Shown here one piece after another: positions 40,218 to 49,655 of a stretch of DNA of 64,000 nucleotides. A program made the position numbers and the translations under genes. The notes beneath the pieces are model-generated. The model was given only the letters and a program-made list of their open reading frames with translations, had not been told where the DNA came from and searched no databases. Source of the DNA: Turneriella sp. (lineage in GTDB: Bacteria > Spirochaetota > Leptospiria > Turneriellales > Turneriellaceae). Location of the stretch: assembly GCA_965279515.1 (NCBI GenBank), contig CBDIID010000003.1:256001-320000 (forward strand). Reading direction: 5' to 3'. Numbering within the stretch: position 1 is the first letter of the stretch; each line of letters opens with the position of its first letter.

Positions 40218-41123
40218 ATGAAGATTGAGACGGCGATTACCCGTATGCTGGGCATCGATCTGCCGATCATCGGCGCGCCGATGTTCCTGGTGTCTTATCC
40301 CGACCTGGTCTGTGCCGTCTCGAATGCCGGTGGCATTGGCAGCATGCCGGCTCTCAACTATCGCACCACCGACGAGCTCAAAGCAGGTCTCACAGAGATT
40401 CGCAGCCGCACGACGAAGCCGATCGGTATCAATCTCATACTCCATAAAGAGCATAACCCGAACTGGATGAAGCAGTTCGAGATCTGCCTCGAGTTCAAAG
40501 TAGAACTCCTCATCACTTCACTGGGCAGCCCACGCACTATTATTAAGGAGGCAAAATCTGTCGGGTCAAAAGTGTTCTGCGACATCACAACGCTGAAACA
40601 TGCTAACATCGTAGCCAAGTCGGGCGCCGACGCGCTCATTGCAGTGGCGCAAGGGGCAGGGGGCCATGCCGGGGCAATCAGCCCTTTCGCCCTGATTCCG
40701 TATCTGAAAACCGAGATCCCTGAAGTGCCTGTCGTGGCCGCCGGCGCCATTTCAACGGGCAAACAGATGGCAGCCGCCCTTGCCCTGGGCGCCGACGCCG
40801 TCTATGTCGGCACCCGGCTCATCGCCACCCCCGAGGCCCAGGCCTATGCGGAGTACAAACAGATGCTGATCGATTCAGCACCTGAAGAAATCATCTATTC
40901 GCCGAAGATCTCGGGAATTCCCGCGAACTGGCTGAAACGCTCGCTCGACAAACTCGATCCCGACTTCAAACCGGATACCGGGCTTTCGGTCGAAGCCAAG
41001 TCATGGAAAGAAGTCTGGTCTGCGGGCCACGGTGTTGCGCAGATTACGAGCGTTGAACCTGCTGAAGAAGTGATCCGTTCTATGGCGATCCAGTATTTAG
41101 ATACGAAGAAGAATTTACCCTAA
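40218..41123 (+). CDS. Nitronate monooxygenase-family flavoprotein
   Basis: PIIGAPMFLVS, GAGGHAG, AAGAI, YVGTRLIAT and WSAGHGV. Confidence 0.9.
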   Translation: MKIETAITRMLGIDLPIIGAPMFLVSYPDLVCAVSNAGGIGSMPALNYRTTDELKAGLTEIRSRTTKPIGINLILHKEHNPNWMKQFEICLEFKVELLITSLGSPRTIIKEAKSVGSKVFCDITTLKHANIVAKSGADALIAVAQGAGGHAGAISPFALIPYLKTEIPEVPVVAAGAISTGKQMAAALALGADAVYVGTRLIATPEAQAYAEYKQMLIDSAPEEIIYSPKISGIPANWLKRSLDKLDPDFKPDTGLSVEAKSWKEVWSAGHGVAQITSVEPAEEVIRSMAIQYLDTKKNLP

Positions 41124-41968
41124 TGCCACTCGACCAGGAATTCGAAGATAAATCGGCCAAGGCTGCGAATGCCGGCATAAAACAGCTGCGCGAGGACCAG
41201 GGCTATATGCCCATGAGTGCCCACCTCGGCGAACTCAGAAAGCGCCTGATGCGTGCGGCGTTATGGATAGTGGCGTTTTCAACGGCAAGTTACTTCTTTT
41301 ATAATTTGGTTTGGACCTTCATCATGGGGCCAGTCGCTGAACTCATCCGCAAATCAAGGCTGCCCGATATGCCCTCGGTCAAAATCATGACCACGCGCCT
41401 CGGCGACAACTTTGCCATTGAGTTCAAGATACTGCTGCTGGCAGGGTTCATCCTCGCATTTCCATTTATCATCTTCGAGATCTGGCGTTTTATCACGCCG
41501 GCGCTGTCAGCAGGCATCCGCCGCTGGGGCAGTATTATTCTTTTGTCGTCGGTAGCCTTGTTCTGGTGCGGGGTGCTTTTCGCGCGGCTCGTGACCTGGG
41601 GTACCGTGGCGGATTTCCTCGTGTTCCAATGGCTACCGCCGCCGATTGTACTGTCGGCCACCGAGAGCGTCAGGCCCGAGATTAACCTGACGATTGCGGA
41701 TTACCTTTCTTTCTTTACGGGTTTTCACCTCGCGTTCGGCCTGAGCTTTCAGCTGCCGATCGTTTCGGTACTGTTGGGGTCGATTGGTGTGATCTCGAGC
41801 GGCCTGTTTTTGCGATTCTGGCGCCATGCCATTGTTGCGCTCTGCCTGTTTTCTATCGTTGTGATGCCGCCCGATGTCTTTGCCATGCTTACGCTGATGG
41901 TGCCGATGATGGGGTTATATTTTCTCTCAGCGTTTCTGGTCTGGCTCATTGAGCGGCGTAAAGAATAG
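41123..41968 (+). CDS. tatC: Twin-arginine translocase subunit TatC
   Basis: HLGELRKRL, WRFITPAL, FGLSFQLP and MPPDVF. Confidence 0.92.
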   Translation: MPLDQEFEDKSAKAANAGIKQLREDQGYMPMSAHLGELRKRLMRAALWIVAFSTASYFFYNLVWTFIMGPVAELIRKSRLPDMPSVKIMTTRLGDNFAIEFKILLLAGFILAFPFIIFEIWRFITPALSAGIRRWGSIILLSSVALFWCGVLFARLVTWGTVADFLVFQWLPPPIVLSATESVRPEINLTIADYLSFFTGFHLAFGLSFQLPIVSVLLGSIGVISSGLFLRFWRHAIVALCLFSIVVMPPDVFAMLTLMVPMMGLYFLSAFLVWLIERRKE

Positions 41969-42006: not shown

Positions 42007-42034
42007 ATGTGACATAAGATACCCTATATGTTGT
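42007..42034. other. attL: dif-like junction (one canonical arm, one degenerate arm)
   Basis: ATGTGACATAA-GATACC-CTATATGTTGT; shares GACATAAGATACC (42011-42023) with 48407-48419. Confidence 0.8.
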
Positions 42035-42038
42035 AGTT

Positions 42039-42362
42039 ATGTCGCCAAGGCATGTAGAGCGCGCACCGTATTTCCGGGATCGTACAAACCGGCAATATTA
42101 TCGTCGGCCGGGGGAATCCGGGAACGGTTTTTTCTCCCGATTTATGCGGGATACGTTGCGCCTAGACAGTTTTGAGGCACGTCGTCAAGGTCGGCGGCCG
42201 TATGGTGGGAAAAGTGTTCAGTACGTAGGGTGGCTTGACTGGTGCCGCCTTACTAGGTCGGTACATCCGAACGACTGGCGCCGAGTAAAGCAATATGGCT
42301 TCCGTGCCCCTGATGGCAATATCTACAAACTACGAAATCGCTATGGCGTGGTACGGCGTTGA
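42039..42362 (+). CDS. Prophage Arg-rich hypothetical protein (start uncertain)
   Basis: First ORF inside the element; very basic. Confidence 0.45.
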   Translation: MSPRHVERAPYFRDRTNRQYYRRPGESGNGFFSRFMRDTLRLDSFEARRQGRRPYGGKSVQYVGWLDWCRLTRSVHPNDWRRVKQYGFRAPDGNIYKLRNRYGVVRR

Positions 42363-42363
42363 A

Positions 42364-42513
42364 ATGCAACGTTGGGGCGGGGGTAGCTGGATTACGATCA
42401 GCGTGCTCGCCGAGAATGCGGGGCACGCCTGTATGAAGGCTGAGCGCCGAAGGCCGGGCTACATAGCGATGTCAGTAGAGCGTGGAAATACTTATAAAAG
42501 GCGGTTTCGATGA
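42364..42513 (+). CDS. Prophage small hypothetical protein (49 aa)
   Basis: ATG 1 nt after the previous stop; ATGA overlap with the next ORF. Confidence 0.5.
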   Translation: MQRWGGGSWITISVLAENAGHACMKAERRRPGYIAMSVERGNTYKRRFR

Positions 42514-42755
42514 AAATAATGGAAGATGAGACAGGTACTGGTGTGACCATTATCATGGATCAAAGTAAAAAGTCTGATACTCTTTTTTATGCGATGGGAA
42601 TATCCCTCGTGATAAAAGGTGCGCTGGCTGATGGATTTACGCAGGTTTTTGTGAATACAAAACCTGACCGGGAAGGTAACGACCGTGTGTTGTTGTCATT
42701 CCGGAAACCTTCGCCGCGTCCCGAAGGGGAACAGCGGGGGGAACAGCATGGCTAA
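42510..42755 (+). CDS. Prophage hypothetical protein (81 aa)
   Basis: Translationally coupled at both ends. Confidence 0.65.
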   Translation: MKIMEDETGTGVTIIMDQSKKSDTLFYAMGISLVIKGALADGFTQVFVNTKPDREGNDRVLLSFRKPSPRPEGEQRGEQHG

Positions 42756-42966
42756 TTTTTGTATTTATGTCAGTACGTCCGAGGGCAAACGAATTGTTCG
42801 CGGTACTGCGCTGACTGTGCCTGAATTTATGGAAAAAGTTCAGGCCCGATTTACACCTGAGAAGATTCGCAGCGAAGGTGTTTATGAAGAAATGGATCTT
42901 GATGAGACCCCGGCGATTCATGCCGGTGTGACAACACGCAAGATTCGTGCGAAGAAAGTGGATTAG
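42748..42966 (+). CDS. Prophage hypothetical protein (72 aa, MANFCIY...)
   Basis: G-rich RBS before ATG 42748; overlaps the previous stop. Confidence 0.65.
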   Translation: MANFCIYVSTSEGKRIVRGTALTVPEFMEKVQARFTPEKIRSEGVYEEMDLDETPAIHAGVTTRKIRAKKVD

Positions 42967-42989
42967 GCGGAAGGAAAAGGGAAAATGAA

Positions 42990-43217
42990 ATGGCTTGGTA
43001 CGGGAAAAGATATGGTGGTTATCGACCGCGCAAGAGGTTTGTCGTGAGACGCTTTTTTGGCGGTCGTCGGCGTCGGGGTGGTGGGTCACCCATGGCGAAG
43101 CGTCGCGCGTTTTTTTGGGGTGGCATCCTGATGATTTTCATCATGATGTGTGCCCCAAATGTTCGCGCATGGATCGTTGCGAAGTTCTCGCAGTGGTTCC
43201 CCAGCTGGAGGGCATGA
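42990..43217 (+). CDS. Prophage Arg/Gly-rich protein with a TM helix (candidate genome-binding membrane protein)
   Basis: KRYGGYRPRKRFVVRRFFGGRRRRGGG followed by hydrophobic FFWGGILMIFIMMCA. Confidence 0.7.
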   Translation: MAWYGKRYGGYRPRKRFVVRRFFGGRRRRGGGSPMAKRRAFFWGGILMIFIMMCAPNVRAWIVAKFSQWFPSWRA

Positions 43218-43218
43218 G

Positions 43219-43920
43219 ATGTATCAGTATAATCGGGAACTGAATGCGGTTGCGATGGCCGCTGGTCAATATCAGTTTGATGTTGAAAAGCAGCTTGTTT
43301 CTAAAATTGCCATTGGTCTGCGTTCCACTGGATCACCTCCGGTAACGCCGACTGTGGCTCAGCTGAAGGCAACTTTTTTCGTTGCTCGCCATATTGCTCC
43401 CGGGGTCGACCGCGAGCTGTATAATATTAGCCTTTATGATCTGGCTATGCTTACAGACGAAAAAGGTGGTTATTCACGTGATTGGACGGATACGGATTTA
43501 TCGGACACGAATATTGTGGCACCGTTTGGACTTGATCTTCGTCAGGAAGGAAAAATCCAGTGCTATATCAGTGTTCCGGCCACGATCGCTAACTGCGCTA
43601 TATCTGCCTACCCTGTGTACGATGGCCAAATGCCTACAACGCTTGCGTACCGTACGCAGACGACGTCTGGAAGCTGTTCTATCAGTAATTGCTTCCGGTT
43701 GTACTCGCGGGACGAGTCGGGTACTGAGCTTGACCTCAAGGTGGGGGATTTCTCTAAGAAAGCCATTGACTTTCTTATGGGAAAGATCCTTTTCAGTGAG
43801 CAGGCCAAGATCGAGAACGAAACGCCGTTCGCGCTGCTTTATTCGAGTCCATCACCGTATTTGGTGAAGCTCGACCGTATGGCGGGCAGTTGCACGTTTG
43901 TTTCTGTGGAGCTTCCATAA
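43219..43920 (+). CDS. Candidate major capsid protein (double-jelly-roll-like, 233 aa)
   Basis: RBS GGAGG; beta-rich, no TM segment; strand-strand-helix pattern (ELYNISLYDLAML) reminiscent of PM2-type MCPs. The fold assignment is inference. Confidence 0.55.
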   Translation: MYQYNRELNAVAMAAGQYQFDVEKQLVSKIAIGLRSTGSPPVTPTVAQLKATFFVARHIAPGVDRELYNISLYDLAMLTDEKGGYSRDWTDTDLSDTNIVAPFGLDLRQEGKIQCYISVPATIANCAISAYPVYDGQMPTTLAYRTQTTSGSCSISNCFRLYSRDESGTELDLKVGDFSKKAIDFLMGKILFSEQAKIENETPFALLYSSPSPYLVKLDRMAGSCTFVSVELP

Positions 43921-44579
43921 TGTTGATGCCGGGCGGTAGTGAGGGGCCGAATTCTGATGTTATTATTCGTGATTTTTACGAAGATCAGAAAACGGCGTTA
44001 AGAGCTACCGCTCGGAATCGTGCGGACGCTGACCGGAAGGTTCGGGAATATGAAGAATTCATAGAGGCTAGGCGTTCCACGCTGGAGTCCGCCCAGGTCG
44101 CGCAGTGGGAGAGGGAAAAGCAAGAAAGAGAAGCAAAGAATAAAGCCGCGTCTGGGGAATCTTTCATATCCAACGCGGGTGGCCTTCTTGGAAAACTCTG
44201 GGATGGCATTGTGGGTAATTATACCGGTGGTGCCCTTTCTTCAGATAGCCTGAAGAAATACGGCAAGAATGCGGTTGGGGTGTCGGATTTCGATGCTCCG
44301 AAGGTTGATATCCCGAATTTCGATTTTGAAGGTTTCAAAGCGAAATCGGCGGCCGCATCCAAAGCAGCTGCTAACGCGGAACTCAGGGCTGCGGGCGGTG
44401 GTACGGCCAATTATGGGTCAGGGGCTATTGCCATGACGAAAGAGGTTAAGGAATTTTCAGATTCGTTTACGAACGGTATCGACAAGAGTCGTATCGGATA
44501 TACGTTGCCGAATTTGAGCCTTCCTGATTTTGATTTTATGGGTGGAGCTCAGCAAGTGAGGGATTTTTATGAACTTTAG
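43920..44579 (+). CDS. Prophage coiled-coil and Ala/Gly-rich protein (DNA-pilot/tape-like candidate)
   Basis: TAATG coupling; charged coiled coil, then amphipathic GGLLGKLWDGIVG. Confidence 0.65.
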   Translation: MLMPGGSEGPNSDVIIRDFYEDQKTALRATARNRADADRKVREYEEFIEARRSTLESAQVAQWEREKQEREAKNKAASGESFISNAGGLLGKLWDGIVGNYTGGALSSDSLKKYGKNAVGVSDFDAPKVDIPNFDFEGFKAKSAAASKAAANAELRAAGGGTANYGSGAIAMTKEVKEFSDSFTNGIDKSRIGYTLPNLSLPDFDFMGGAQQVRDFYEL

Positions 44580-44826
44580 TATGGGCAGTTTGAATTCGCT
44601 TCTTTCGGGAGCGAGCGAGATATCAGGATCGTTCGGTGGGCCGACGATACCTGGGGCTACGCCGCCGCCTCCGCCGCCACCAGCGGTGCAGGCTGTTACG
44701 CCGCGTGATTCGGGCGCCGACTTTGGCGCGGGTACTTATGCCGCTGGTGCGGGCGTATCATTGGTTGCGTTGTATCTTGGATACAAGGCTCTGCGGTATT
44801 TCGGTGTTATTCCGAAGGTAATATGA
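44569..44826 (+). CDS. Prophage small membrane protein with a poly-Pro linker
   Basis: Run of 7 Pro, C-terminal TM AGAGVSLVALYLGY and a basic tail. Confidence 0.7.
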   Translation: MNFSMGSLNSLLSGASEISGSFGGPTIPGATPPPPPPPAVQAVTPRDSGADFGAGTYAAGAGVSLVALYLGYKALRYFGVIPKVI

Positions 44827-44957
44827 TCCGCAAAATACTTGCTGGGATTTTGAGGTTCATTCACAATGAAGCGTTGTTGCTTAAGCTGGCTGATTATTTG
44901 GAACAGCCTTCTTTGGATGAATCCGTGGGGCAGCCTGATGGCCAAGAAGCTTCTTAA
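44823..44957 (+). CDS. Prophage small protein (44 aa, MIRKILAGILRF...)
   Basis: ATGA-coupled ORF that fills the gap before the peptidase; amphipathic N-terminus. Confidence 0.55.
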   Translation: MIRKILAGILRFIHNEALLLKLADYLEQPSLDESVGQPDGQEAS

Positions 44958-45579
44958 GAACGTTGAGGCCCCGGCTGGCCTTCGGGATATTATTCTGGAG
45001 GAGTATGAAGCTTACAAAGCTTATCGGGGCGCCGGTGCGCCTGATCAATTATTTAGTACTTTTGCCGCTTCGTCTGGAACTGGCGTTCCCTCTCATGATG
45101 CTGGTAAAGCTATTGATATTGTTACTGACGGTTACGATAGCCGCCCTTATCTTTTTGAATTTGGGATTTGGCTATTTGTTAAAAGACCGGACCTGAGCGT
45201 TTACTTCTATTCGATGCAGTATGAACCGCATGTTCATATTGGGCAGGTTTCTGGGTTTGGAAAGGGATCTTACCTAGCCGTGAACAAAGGTGCAAAGGGT
45301 AAGTTCGATATTTATCCGCGTGCCCAGGTCGCCGGCAAAGCTTCGGATATAATCGGAAAGCTGAAAGCGGCGCGGGAAACTTATCCTGCGGGTGTAAATG
45401 TGGATTGGCCTACCTATCAGGCCATGCTTGAGGGGAAGGTCCCTGTAGGGACGAGTAATTGGAAACAGTATTTGAAAAAATACTGGTGGGTTGGATTATT
45501 GAGCTTTTTGGCTCTTGGAATCGGTTTTTTTATTTGGAGATCTAGGAATCAGGAGGAAACTGAAGATGGAATTGCATGA
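44938..45579 (+). CDS. Membrane-anchored M15/LAS-type zinc peptidase (candidate peptidoglycan hydrolase)
   Basis: SHDAGKAID (HX6D) and PHVHIG (HXH) motifs; C-terminal TM WWVGLLSFLALGIGFFIW. Confidence 0.75.
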   Translation: MAKKLLKNVEAPAGLRDIILEEYEAYKAYRGAGAPDQLFSTFAASSGTGVPSHDAGKAIDIVTDGYDSRPYLFEFGIWLFVKRPDLSVYFYSMQYEPHVHIGQVSGFGKGSYLAVNKGAKGKFDIYPRAQVAGKASDIIGKLKAARETYPAGVNVDWPTYQAMLEGKVPVGTSNWKQYLKKYWWVGLLSFLALGIGFFIWRSRNQEETEDGIA

Positions 45580-45664
45580 TGTAGGTTTAAACGAGTTGCT
45601 TCTCGTAGTGTTTAACCTGATCACCACAGTGATCGCGTATTTTCGTGGTAAAAAATCTAACTGA
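45566..45664 (+). CDS. Prophage 32-aa single-TM protein (MELHDVGLNELLLVVFNLITTVIAYFRGKKSN)
   Basis: Strong RBS AGGAGG at 45551-45556; TGATG coupling to the next gene. Confidence 0.65.
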   Translation: MELHDVGLNELLLVVFNLITTVIAYFRGKKSN

Positions 45665-46140
45665 TGAAGTGGGTTTGGACCGCGTTGATTGGCCTTGTTG
45701 GCTGGTTAATTTATGATTGGCTCCGGGATAAACCCGGGGCTGTTTCCAACTCGGTGCAGGATTCTGCAGACATGATGGGGGCCGTGGCAGACGGTATCAT
45801 TGAAAAGCAGAATGCAAAGAAGCCGAAGAAATGGATTTGGCTTTTGCTTGGCTCTGTCCCTGTTATCGGGACGGGTCTTTTTTTCCTATTCAGAAAAAAG
45901 AAGCCTATGAGTAATCTGTTTAATTTGGGTTATTTGGGTCAGAAGGCTCCGGCAGGATCGGAATTTGATTCTCGATACTTAGCAGGATGCGCGAAGGCAC
46001 GGCGGGAGAGTTTGAAGATGGATTTCGCTAAGACTCAGGGCGCAACGGTCGCCGGCTTACCGATAGAGAGTGTGATGGCCACTTTTGGCAAGAAGAAGGT
46101 GTACGATGAAGGTAATTTCAGAAAAGCTCAGCGGTACTAG
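45664..46140 (+). CDS. Prophage membrane protein with two TM segments
   Basis: WVWTALIGLVGWLIY and WIWLLLGSVPVIGTGLFFLF, each flanked by basic residues. Confidence 0.7.
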   Translation: MKWVWTALIGLVGWLIYDWLRDKPGAVSNSVQDSADMMGAVADGIIEKQNAKKPKKWIWLLLGSVPVIGTGLFFLFRKKKPMSNLFNLGYLGQKAPAGSEFDSRYLAGCAKARRESLKMDFAKTQGATVAGLPIESVMATFGKKKVYDEGNFRKAQRY

Positions 46141-46573
46141 AAGCTTCCGTGGCTTGGGCTTTGTTGAGATAAATGGGATTCAGTATCCCGTTTGTGGTTC
46201 TCGACAGTTTGAATGTGGTAGAAAGGCGACGGTGCGGTACGTCGATGAGCAGATAGAAATGTTGGAAGTGTTGGAACCGACAATGCTCGCAGTTTTTCCC
46301 GGGAGCTTAGAGGGGTTCCCTATTGCAACGAACGGTAGAGTTTTTGTCACGGTGGACAAGAAATATTCTCTTTATAGGGGACTGCTCGAAGGCATATGTT
46401 TGGGCGGTATTTCGGACGGTGCATCGACGATATCTGTCGTACCGCCGCTTTTTTTGAACTCACGTTATATATATGGCGCCGGAAGGATCGATCAGTGGAA
46501 CCCGGATTTCCCTGTATGGGATTCAAGCTTTGATTTGGCCTGGGATTTTGACGCTGTATCGATGCGTCAATGA
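46106..46573 (+). CDS. Prophage beta-rich protein (candidate penton/minor capsid)
   Basis: Start MKVIS; no TM segment; ATGA-coupled to the next gene. Confidence 0.6.
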   Translation: MKVISEKLSGTRSFRGLGFVEINGIQYPVCGSRQFECGRKATVRYVDEQIEMLEVLEPTMLAVFPGSLEGFPIATNGRVFVTVDKKYSLYRGLLEGICLGGISDGASTISVVPPLFLNSRYIYGAGRIDQWNPDFPVWDSSFDLAWDFDAVSMRQ

Positions 46574-47265
46574 TCGTTGGCAATCGATCATTGATACTGC
46601 CGGTTTCGGAGGCCGGTTGGGATAGGCTTTGGTCCCCGCCTGTTCGCAATTTCTCTTATCCGGATTCACGTGCTGGATTAATTCAAGGTTGCGTTGGGGA
46701 CGTGCCGGCGAAATCCGATATTACGCCGTATCTTGCGGGGAATGTATGGAATTCTGTCCAGATTTTAAGGTATAATCCGCCCACGAGTGTAGCGCTGACG
46801 CATGAGTATGGCAATACGTTCACGGGATCGGCGTGGACGCACGACGGTGATTTTCGTGACATGGCAGGCGCTGCGATATTTCCGGCTCCGCTGAATAATT
46901 ATCAGCGGGCGTTTGGCACGTTTGCAAATATTGGTATAGATCCGGATGAATCCGGAAAACCAGCCGCGAATTCGTTTAGTTATTTAATAAAATACAATCT
47001 TCAACGCGGTGGGTTCGTGCAAGTGTACGAGTTTGAAGAAGGGGCAGACGGCATCGTCTCCGTATCTATTCAAGGTGGTGTTGCTTCAGCCGTTAAGGCA
47101 CTTCGGATTTCCGATGGTTCATGGCAGGTTATCTCAGAAGGTGGAATGCTGCTGCCGGCGGGTGGTGGCCAGTTTTGGTTAAACGCCTCGTGGACGTCCG
47201 GTGTCGCGGCTACGCAAATGATTGCGCGACTGCGGTTTAGCGTAGAGGTTCCGTATGGCTTATGA
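46570..47265 (+). CDS. Prophage beta-rich protein (candidate spike/receptor-binding)
   Basis: 231 aa, rich in Gly/Ser and aromatics; overlaps the rep start. Confidence 0.65.
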   Translation: MIVGNRSLILPVSEAGWDRLWSPPVRNFSYPDSRAGLIQGCVGDVPAKSDITPYLAGNVWNSVQILRYNPPTSVALTHEYGNTFTGSAWTHDGDFRDMAGAAIFPAPLNNYQRAFGTFANIGIDPDESGKPAANSFSYLIKYNLQRGGFVQVYEFEEGADGIVSVSIQGGVASAVKALRISDGSWQVISEGGMLLPAGGGQFWLNASWTSGVAATQMIARLRFSVEVPYGL

Positions 47266-48010
47266 TTTGGCCGACGAGGCCGAGTCCTATTATTTCGATC
47301 AGTCTTTGAGCCCGGTGGTTTTGGATTATCCAAACGGCCGGGAAGTCTATTTTGAGGCAGCTCGAAAAAAAGAAGTCTTTGGTGGGGGGAAACGTGGAAA
47401 AGTCTTTTCAATGTCCGCTGCGGCGGTCAGAAGGTTCCGGCAGGCGCTTCGGCGAAGTGGTGCGAAATTTTCGCATTTCGTTACAGTCACTTTTCCGCCT
47501 GAGGTTCTTGGGATCGATGAGGATTGGCCCAGGTATGTCCGTAAGTTTTGGCAAAAACTTGCCGCCGAATGTCGCAAGAGGGATATTACGTATTTGTGGG
47601 TACGCGAGCCGCACAAAAGCGGACAACCACATTATCACATTATATGTACGAAAGGGCCGTTATTTCGGTTACTTGCGAATCGCATCATATCGGAGGGGAC
47701 AACCCGGGAGCGTGGACGACTTAACCTCCGGGTGGGTGTTCTGTGCAAAGCAATCTATCACGAAGGCGGTGCTGCGCGCTATATGTCAAAACTCGCCGGC
47801 TATTGCAGCAAGGAATCGCAGGTATTGCACGAGGAATCGTATCGTCATTGGGGCCGAAACTACGATGACGAGCTCCCAGACATCTACGAAGCAACTGCCG
47901 CTGTTTGCGACTGGGTAAGAAGCCAATATGATCGGCTGTATGCTTTTAAATTTCCGCGATTACTGCAGGTGCCGCGGGGTCTCCCCGTGGGGCCGGCGCT
48001 TTACTTTTAG
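47255..48010 (+). CDS. rep: HUH-superfamily rolling-circle replication initiator
   Basis: Motif I FVTVTF, YLWVRE...PHYHII (motif II HUH), motif III YMSKLAGYCSK. Confidence 0.88.
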   Translation: MAYDLADEAESYYFDQSLSPVVLDYPNGREVYFEAARKKEVFGGGKRGKVFSMSAAAVRRFRQALRRSGAKFSHFVTVTFPPEVLGIDEDWPRYVRKFWQKLAAECRKRDITYLWVREPHKSGQPHYHIICTKGPLFRLLANRIISEGTTRERGRLNLRVGVLCKAIYHEGGAARYMSKLAGYCSKESQVLHEESYRHWGRNYDDELPDIYEATAAVCDWVRSQYDRLYAFKFPRLLQVPRGLPVGPALYF

Positions 48011-48402
48011 CGCGCCGCACAATAATCCCCCTGGCTGAACAAGCAGGCCGGAGGCCGCACGTTTACGCGGCGAAAAGTGCCGTCTGCAGACGGATGTCTG
48101 CTTGCACGTCAAAAATCGTCGATCTCGATTTTGTTACAGGGCTATGCGTAGCCCTTTTTGCGTTTTGCTGCAGCAAAACGCGGGGGGTCCGGGGGGGCGA
48201 TAGCCCCGCCCGGGGGCGAAGCCCTTGGTTATAGACACATATTGAAGTTGACCTACTGAAAACATTGGGTTTTCTTGTCTTATGGGAATAGCAGAAGCAA
48301 TATTCATAATTGGTATCTGGGTTGGATCGAACGGAATCGTGTTTTGCGTCGCTGCGGAACTCTCCGGCAACTCGTTTTGTGTGTTTTAACAAAAAAAAGT
48401 TG
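48011..48402. other. Prophage non-coding region, candidate origins and terminator
   Basis: Hairpins at 48086-48101, 48138-48155 (plus T-run), a 22-bp palindrome at 48160-48181, 48194-48207 and 48214-48224. Confidence 0.6.
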
Positions 48403-48430
48403 ACGAGACATAAGATACCTTATGGGAAGT
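48403..48430. other. attR: intact-looking dif-like XerCD site
   Basis: ACGAGACATAA-GATACC-TTATGGGAAGT has the 11-6-11 architecture with the CATAA/TTATG inverted core. Confidence 0.82.
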
Positions 48431-48453: not shown

Positions 48454-49590
48454 TCAGGGCGCTTGATTAACCGGTATCGCTTTAATCTGATAAGCGAAAT
48501 AAATGAAAAATAATATGTTTATCGGTACCTGTACATACGCCTTACACCAGTCTTGATTATAGATTAGCGTGACCAGAGAAAACAGTACTAGCACTGCTAA
48601 GTTCGGCCAACTGCTCTTTTGAAATTTCAAACGGCTGAGCATAAAGAAAAATACCGGAATCAGAAGAAATGCCCAATAAGGCCAGACTATTGGCGTGAGA
48701 ATACCCGAAATTCCCAGGCCATACGCATATCCTTCAAGCTTCTGCGTTCTTTTTATGCTCAGAAATAAAAGCCCTGCGGCGGCGGCGGTCATGAACCAAA
48801 AGATAAAGGCCAGACGTTGACTGAAGCCAAGATGCAGCAACCAACCGATCAGCGATTCGTTGTCCCGATGTCCCAACAGCCCTTCAGAAGATTTAGTCAG
48901 GCTCTTTAACCATGCGCCATTTTCAACGGTTGAGAATTCCCAGCCGGAATAAAGCGCGGTAACGCCGTAACTAATGATAATTAGCCAGACCGGAATCAGC
49001 AACAACCCTAGCCAGCGCCTTTGGATCAGAAATATCGGTGCGATAAAAAGAAAATGCAATTTGAATAAGATTGCCAACGCAAGGCAAAGCGCGGCGAGAA
49101 CCTGGGAAAATCGGGTTTCCGCGTTCAATAGTACATATGTCCCAAGGGAAAGAATAAGCGGCAGACCATTAATTTGCCCTAGCCTAAGTTCATCCCGAAT
49201 ACTTACAATAAAGACCAATGAAGTTATGATTTTTCCCTGGAATTCTGAAATTGTGCCATCAAATGAAAAATATTTCGGCAAAGCAAAAAATATCAGCCAA
49301 ATCCAGGCGGCCGTAAAAAGAAAATAGAAAATCCAAGGCCGCGCTTCCTTAGGGCAAGGAGTAATAATCGCACCAAAAAACAGCGCCACGGAAGGCGAAT
49401 ATTTGAATTGATAGTGATTTTCCACATCGAAAACCGTTTTGTGATTTATTGCTTTGGCCCCGGCCTCTTCGTATACCCTAAAATCGTCGAAAACCGGCTT
49501 GGAATTTAAAAACATGGTAAATACATACACCAAAACGAGGCCAGAAAGAATAAGAAATCTCCGTTGCTTGCTAAGAACCATATTGCCCAT
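48454..49590 (-). CDS. GT87/DUF2029-like membrane glycosyltransferase
   Basis: DFRVY, FKYSP, GQIN, ILFKL and NESL; multi-TM. Confidence 0.82.
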   Translation of the reverse strand: MGNMVLSKQRRFLILSGLVLVYVFTMFLNSKPVFDDFRVYEEAGAKAINHKTVFDVENHYQFKYSPSVALFFGAIITPCPKEARPWIFYFLFTAAWIWLIFFALPKYFSFDGTISEFQGKIITSLVFIVSIRDELRLGQINGLPLILSLGTYVLLNAETRFSQVLAALCLALAILFKLHFLFIAPIFLIQRRWLGLLLIPVWLIIISYGVTALYSGWEFSTVENGAWLKSLTKSSEGLLGHRDNESLIGWLLHLGFSQRLAFIFWFMTAAAAGLLFLSIKRTQKLEGYAYGLGISGILTPIVWPYWAFLLIPVFFFMLSRLKFQKSSWPNLAVLVLFSLVTLIYNQDWCKAYVQVPINILFFIYFAYQIKAIPVNQAP

Positions 49591-49655
49591 TCATTTTATC
49601 CCTTTCAAGAACATTTGCCGTCGAAGTTAGAAGGTAAAGTATATTTCGGGGGATT

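Follow-up and report, generated by a model that had tools for sequence, protein, structure and literature searches.

The closest described counterparts of the element analyzed here are the PhiCjT23-like prophages of Flavobacterium, reported as 6.0-8.4 kb long and flanked by dif motifs, with integration by XerCD inferred (PMC9719478), and the "dif-type" double jelly-roll (DJR) prophages of Vibrio, which are classed as IMEX and described with full, left-armed or right-armed attP sites (PMC12715192). Dif-like sites are also reported for NO16 and PM2 (PMC9966536), and DJR groups that lack a packaging ATPase are known (PMC5894146). Among other users of the Xer machinery, Enterogokushovirus prophages are reported to integrate passively by XerCD, as shown with xer mutants, and to need both arms (PMC7062461); TLC phi is described as following a XerD-first route with XafT (PMC6744903); the overlap regions of CTX and VGJ are described as blocking the second strand exchange (bioRxiv 10.64898/2026.06.12.731946; PMC5357621); and a poor arm is reported to limit excision of the gonococcal island (PMC5357621).

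We analyzed a 64,000-nt stretch (the window) of Turneriella sp. contig CBDIID010000003.1, from a genome labelled G000 with chromosome C3. It holds a 6.4-kb virus-like element, encoding a rolling-circle Rep and a predicted DJR protein of a presumably tailless capsid, that is very probably inserted in the predicted dif by the host's own XerC and XerD (Table 1). Xer hijacking by a small phage is a known viral trick, here in a new host lineage, and the element extends the small phages that use it to a free-living spirochaete lineage. According to the earlier note, no description of such integration was known for a spirochaete or for this gene set. The first half stands, with no report of Xer/dif phage integration in a spirochaete found in the open-licence literature, whereas the second does not: the gene set is, as modeled, that of a compact DJR phage, and dif integration by such phages has been published (PMC9719478, PMC9966536, PMC12715192).

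Table 1. Features of the integrated element and its flanks (window coordinates).
Feature	Position	Strand	Remarks
tatC, host left flank	41123..41968	+	Pfam PF00902, E 1e-50
attL	42007..42034	-	XerD arm from host (11/11), 6-bp core at 42018-42023, XerC-side arm from phage degenerate (6/11)
Integrated element, one unit of 6,396 bp	42011..48406	+	all called genes on +
-10-like hexamer, hypothetical	42027..42032	+	circular form alone brings it together with the -35-like hexamer at 48400; consensus match only
XerD-arm-like 11-mer, second copy, inverted, just inside attL	42037..42047	+	from sequence only
Three small ORFs (72, 81, 72 aa)	42295..42966	+	no family; candidates for regulator or Xer activator
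75-aa Arg-rich protein with hydrophobic segment	42990..43217	+	predicted DNA-binding membrane protein
233-aa predicted double jelly-roll major capsid protein	43219..43920	+	
Seven ORFs, predicted membrane and vertex proteins	43926..47265	+	three with hydrophobic segments above cut-off
251-aa HUH rolling-circle initiator (Rep)	47255..48010	+	PF23343, E 1.4e-11, above cut-off; phrog_3419; HYH and YxxK motifs
14-bp motif among hairpins, candidate rolling-circle origin	48221..48234	+	common to G012 element
-35-like hexamer after A-tract, hypothetical	48400..48405	+	
attR	48403..48430	-	XerC arm from host (11/11), core at 48414-48419, XerD arm from phage (9/11); predicted to be the working dif
GT87 gene, host right flank	48454..49590	-	PF09594; not conserved beside dif in relatives

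The junctions carry a 13-bp direct repeat (42011-42023 and 48407-48419, 6,396 bp apart), each copy of which sits within an 11-6-11 site, attL or attR. Taken alone, this repeat is modest evidence for integration (3 of 300 equal-sized random region pairs share a repeat of at least 13 bp), and the left arm alone is weak evidence for dif, as its 11-mer occurs 29 times on the chromosome. The decisive evidence is the comparison with relatives, for which tatC was searched in 41 genomes and the site pattern in 34 genomes of the order. The earlier note had proposed that the two junctions together reconstitute a 28-bp dif and had named the empty site of relatives as a check. Its reconstruction is correct and the check came out in its favor: six of the 13 same-genus genomes (G001, G002, G003, G006, G008, G011) have the 28-mer unbroken and without any difference, whereas it differs by one or two bases in another six (G004, G005, G007, G009, G010, G013) and is split by a related element in the remaining one, G012. 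A relaxed dif pattern matches 29 of the 34 order genomes, mostly once, and its reversed control gives two matches. The arms are named after the layout in other bacteria, and their assignment to XerC or XerD binding rests on analogy. Similarly to the Turneriella site, the predicted dif of Leptospira interrogans chromosome I, as given in a supplement (PMC3025954), has arms that agree with it at 10/11 and 9/11 positions. These comparisons define the sequence of dif in Turneriella and in the order to which it belongs.

The position of the site agrees with that of a terminus. Arm matches of at least 17/22 occur at only five places in the genome, namely two copies on contig C1 with another core (21), attR (20), C3 at 3.16 Mb (18) and attL (17). 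In line with the earlier note, the chromosome holds no better dif, attR being its best arm match and the site lying at the switch of replichore polarity. For forty skewed octamers, picked outside 260-340 kb, the polarity reverses within the interval from 297,188 to 302,207, which includes dif (298,010), and the most skewed of them, GGGCAGGG, fits the KOPS consensus as given in PMC13342612. The cumulative GC skew reaches its maximum at 311,186, which is 6.8 kb from the site after removal of the element. The right junction was also correctly foreseen to remain dif-like: attR retains 26 of 28 dif bases (20/22 in the arms), and this near-intact site is likely still to resolve chromosome dimers. 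Compared with the host dif, the phage attP has an identical core (6/6); its XerD arm is good (9/11), whereas the arm on the XerC side is poor (6/11) and has one of its changed bases next to the core. The element has a GC content of 50.1% against 53.1% for the chromosome and has no 20-mer in common with the rest of the genome.

The element that splits dif in G012 is syntenic with the window element, with capsid and Rep proteins 35% and 33% identical. It ends at dif with its right junction (L033:6549), while the left one is found on a different contig, downstream of tatC; the two were linked by inference, as they are the only two matches of the pattern and their arms are complementary. Its attP combines a good XerC arm (9/11) and the host's own core with a poorer XerD arm (7/11). 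Because the G012 attP is good in the XerC arm and the window attP in the XerD arm, the two elements are oppositely oriented with respect to dif, each imitating the arm that the other does not. Identity between phage and host ends exactly at one border of the 6-bp core in each element, the side differing between them, as cleavage by a tyrosine recombinase would predict, and the Rep end carries the better junction in both of the two elements compared. A single crossover, illegitimate or mediated by Rep, that used a 13-bp homology arisen by chance and struck dif by accident would accord with the frequency of such repeats among random pairs and with a family of 69 chromosomal copies of the XerD-arm motif; we give it hardly any credence, as only one of those copies is a full dif, located at the terminus, and both known insertions fall there, their identity to the host stopping at a core border. 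Since one sister phage is XerD-armed and the other XerC-armed, this natural pair of attP sites makes it testable how a half-mimic with a poor XerC arm is recombined and whether a new Xer activator exists. The G012 element also has, between its origin-like motif and attR (L033:6315-6527), an ORF of 70 aa that contains cysteines and begins with a hydrophobic stretch; the window element has no counterpart of it.

The statement that the element has no integrase was confirmed, since none of the four PF00589 matches in the genome lies inside it and Pfam and PHROGs scans of 12 ORFs (all but a 31-aa ORF at 45569) found no integrase of its own. One of the four is the host XerD (C3 4,832,285-4,833,217), which passes the TIGR02225 cut-off, and the second is a XerC candidate (C3 1,401,106-1,402,014), for which XerC is the best-scoring model, although its 296.8 bits fall short of the 335 required by TIGR02224; an FtsK gene is present as well. 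Insertion in the predicted chromosomal dif of a host that encodes XerD and a XerC-like enzyme (the latter below its cut-off), with a dif-like attP and one junction that regenerates dif, makes the element a probable IMEX (integrative mobile element exploiting Xer), a class whose integration depends on catalysis by XerC and XerD. The remaining two PF00589 proteins are encoded at 2.78 and 2.93 Mb of C3, and either of them, or an enzyme supplied by a helper element, might be thought to insert the phage at dif, the more so given its poor XerC-side arm; that two diverged elements each copied a different dif arm together with the host core fits a XerC/XerD pair and not a third enzyme, which makes this source of the recombinase very improbable. 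Integration by XerC and XerD remains the best explanation, tempered by the score of the XerC candidate, the 6/11 match of the XerC-side arm, the two other host recombinases, the indirect link between the G012 junctions and a sample of two elements with junctions, all of which count against it.

How XerC and XerD would act depends on the form of attP. The route that we favor, and consider fairly probable, is that a double-stranded circle presents a half-mimic attP with a good XerD arm, a core identical to that of the host and a poor XerC arm, and that exchange most likely begins with XerD under activation by FtsK or a phage factor. FtsK or another factor is named because DUF3653 (XafT) had no Pfam match in the scanned ORFs of either element, although divergent activators may escape Pfam. 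With an identical core, neither of the two strand exchanges would be blocked, unlike in CTX and VGJ, and the poor XerC arm, which ends up in attL, would limit re-excision. The TLC phi/GGI class of IMEX is similar, being described with a double-stranded attP, a host-identical central region and one poor arm (PMC6744903, PMC5357621); the G012 element matches the TLC-type pattern in its poor XerD arm, whereas the window element reverses it. The VGJ type has a central region mismatched on the XerD side, whereas the core is identical at both junctions of both elements. Enterogokushovirus, a small ssDNA phage as this one probably is, is described with a Microviridae capsid and a phage dif in which most of the variation falls in the spacer and the XerD arm.

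In the CTX-type route, by comparison, XerCD would act on a folded single-stranded attP. The phage genome is likely single-stranded, and the inverted XerD-arm-like copy just inside attL can pair with the phage XerD arm, but the predicted hairpins are no more stable than those of shuffled sequences (best z -1.5 over 12 folds of both elements), the 19-nt loop is too short to hold a double-stranded XerC arm, and CTX is described as using two sites 90 nt apart (PMC5357621). No significant stem covers both arms, as two inverted dif-like sites folding together would give, and this route is very improbable. A XerC-arm-like stretch (48281-48290) and an inverted core copy (48311-48317) also lie 100-140 bp upstream of attR; neither pairs with attP in the predicted fold.

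The gene content of the element points to the PhiCjT23/FLiP-like phages, which have a Rep, 6-9 kb of DNA and no packaging ATPase: it has a rolling-circle Rep, 6.4 kb, no Walker A motif in any of the six frames and a capsid protein predicted to adopt the compact DJR fold. The similarity seen is one of fold, as neither capsid nor Rep gave an HMM match to PDB sequences or PHROGs that ties them by sequence, and tblastn of the capsid against a phage collection gave no match. In structural comparisons the capsid model reaches its best VIA Z score with the PhiCjT23 capsid protein, tied with STIV, and the closest predicted structure is BFVD A0A345N5C7, a 246-aa viral protein (TM 0.74/0.70, 14% identity); the 90% cluster of the protein includes a Turneriella sp. 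member. The analysis thus names a capsid family missed by Pfam, PHROGs and PDB sequence searches. Based on gene content and the hydrophobic ORFs, and by analogy with PhiCjT23, the virion is quite likely a lipid-containing ssDNA particle. Two of the seven ORFs after the capsid gene have homologues at the same place in G012, where an ORF similar to the 75-aa Arg-rich protein also precedes the capsid gene. The 14-bp motif after Rep, a length reached by 0 of 300 shuffles, matches three of the 34 order genomes, with the third match between host genes.

Compared with the PhiCjT23-like prophages as described, the element shares the size range, the rolling-circle Rep, the dif-like sites at both ends and the length of the compact capsid protein (233 aa, against 239 aa in PhiCjT23). 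It differs in its host, Turneriella, which belongs to the class Leptospiria of the phylum Spirochaetota, in a capsid identity of only 8-12%, in the family of its Rep (PF23343, whereas the PhiCjT23-like Rep is reported to match a Geobacillus replication initiation factor by HHpred) and in the position of that gene, which is last here and first in those prophages. With the Vibrio DJR prophages, PM2 and NO16, according to their descriptions, it shares the lack of an integrase, insertion of a DJR phage at dif and one junction regenerating dif; the presumptive PM2 site likewise combines a retained XerD arm with a XerC arm that is poor. The Vibrio prophages are reported to average 12.9 kb and to carry a repressor module beside attP, whereas this element has 6.4 kb, no recognised repressor and no Walker A motif, which also sets it apart from the PM2-like Corticoviridae with their packaging ATPase and 10-13 kb.

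The circular form of the element contains a sigma-70-like hexamer pair (9/12, 17-bp spacer) that spans the crossover. The 680-nt intergenic region has no other sense-strand match, and attL, attR and attB all lack the pair; a 10-mer that includes the A-tract is found again ahead of the right junction in G012. If the pair were the promoter of the one-way operon, Xer integration would part the -35 from the -10 hexamer and so silence the phage. However, 6 of 40 other dif sites give a spanning match on either strand, and the match in G012 differs and is present in attR as well as in attP; a promoter spanning the attP crossover is doubtful. Just as speculative is the wider picture of an undescribed family of 6.2-6.6 kb ATPase-less DJR phages of Turneriella, in which attP would act as a repressor-free lysogeny switch and sisters would have flipped attP and swapped the mimicked arm, with the working dif always at the Rep/origin end. 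The 28-bp attP could serve as a site-specific integration tool for the group.

The empty site had been expected between tatC and the GT87 gene, and the relatives bear this out on the tatC side only: an intact dif lies at most 1.5 kb downstream of tatC in eight of the 13 same-genus genomes, but no GT87 homologue was found beside dif at any of the 41 loci scanned, and in G001 an AraC gene directly abuts dif. The XerC arm faces tatC in these eight relatives and in G012, whereas the XerD arm faces it here, and the block that ends with tatC (window 15100-41970) is correspondingly on the XerD side here and on the XerC side in relatives. Because homologues of the genes at window 9-15 kb are reached from the XerD side of dif in G003 (L213), it is apparently the tatC block that has moved, with dif keeping its orientation to the chromosome arm that carries those genes. 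The XerC-side flank (window 48454-55000), which holds the GT87 gene and an AraC gene, has a reduced GC content, 48% across 10 kb, and contains four AT-rich palindromic repeats (50809, 51102, 52349, 54348) that are probably regulator binding sites. Farther along, two 41-nt copies that are 95% alike and 89 bp apart (window 59129-59258) look like tandem tRNA genes.

The XerD-arm-like 11-mers form a widely dispersed family, with 69 chromosomal copies against about 4.7 expected, 30-121 copies in the 13 same-genus genomes (reversed control, 1-8) and 383 in one genome of the taxonomic family. Stand-alone XerD sites are known from Bacillus, and the dispersed copies may be sites of this kind or those of a regulator. 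Unloading of SMC by XerD is mentioned in PMC13342612. Contig C1 has two copies (4774 and 28249, 23,475 bp apart) of a complete dif-like site that shares the XerC arm but not the core, and contig C2 has a motif repeated about 6.6 kb apart; both look like concatenated small replicons. C1 resembles the T. parva plasmid, with one stretch 69% identical, and several relatives likewise have a second dif-like site.
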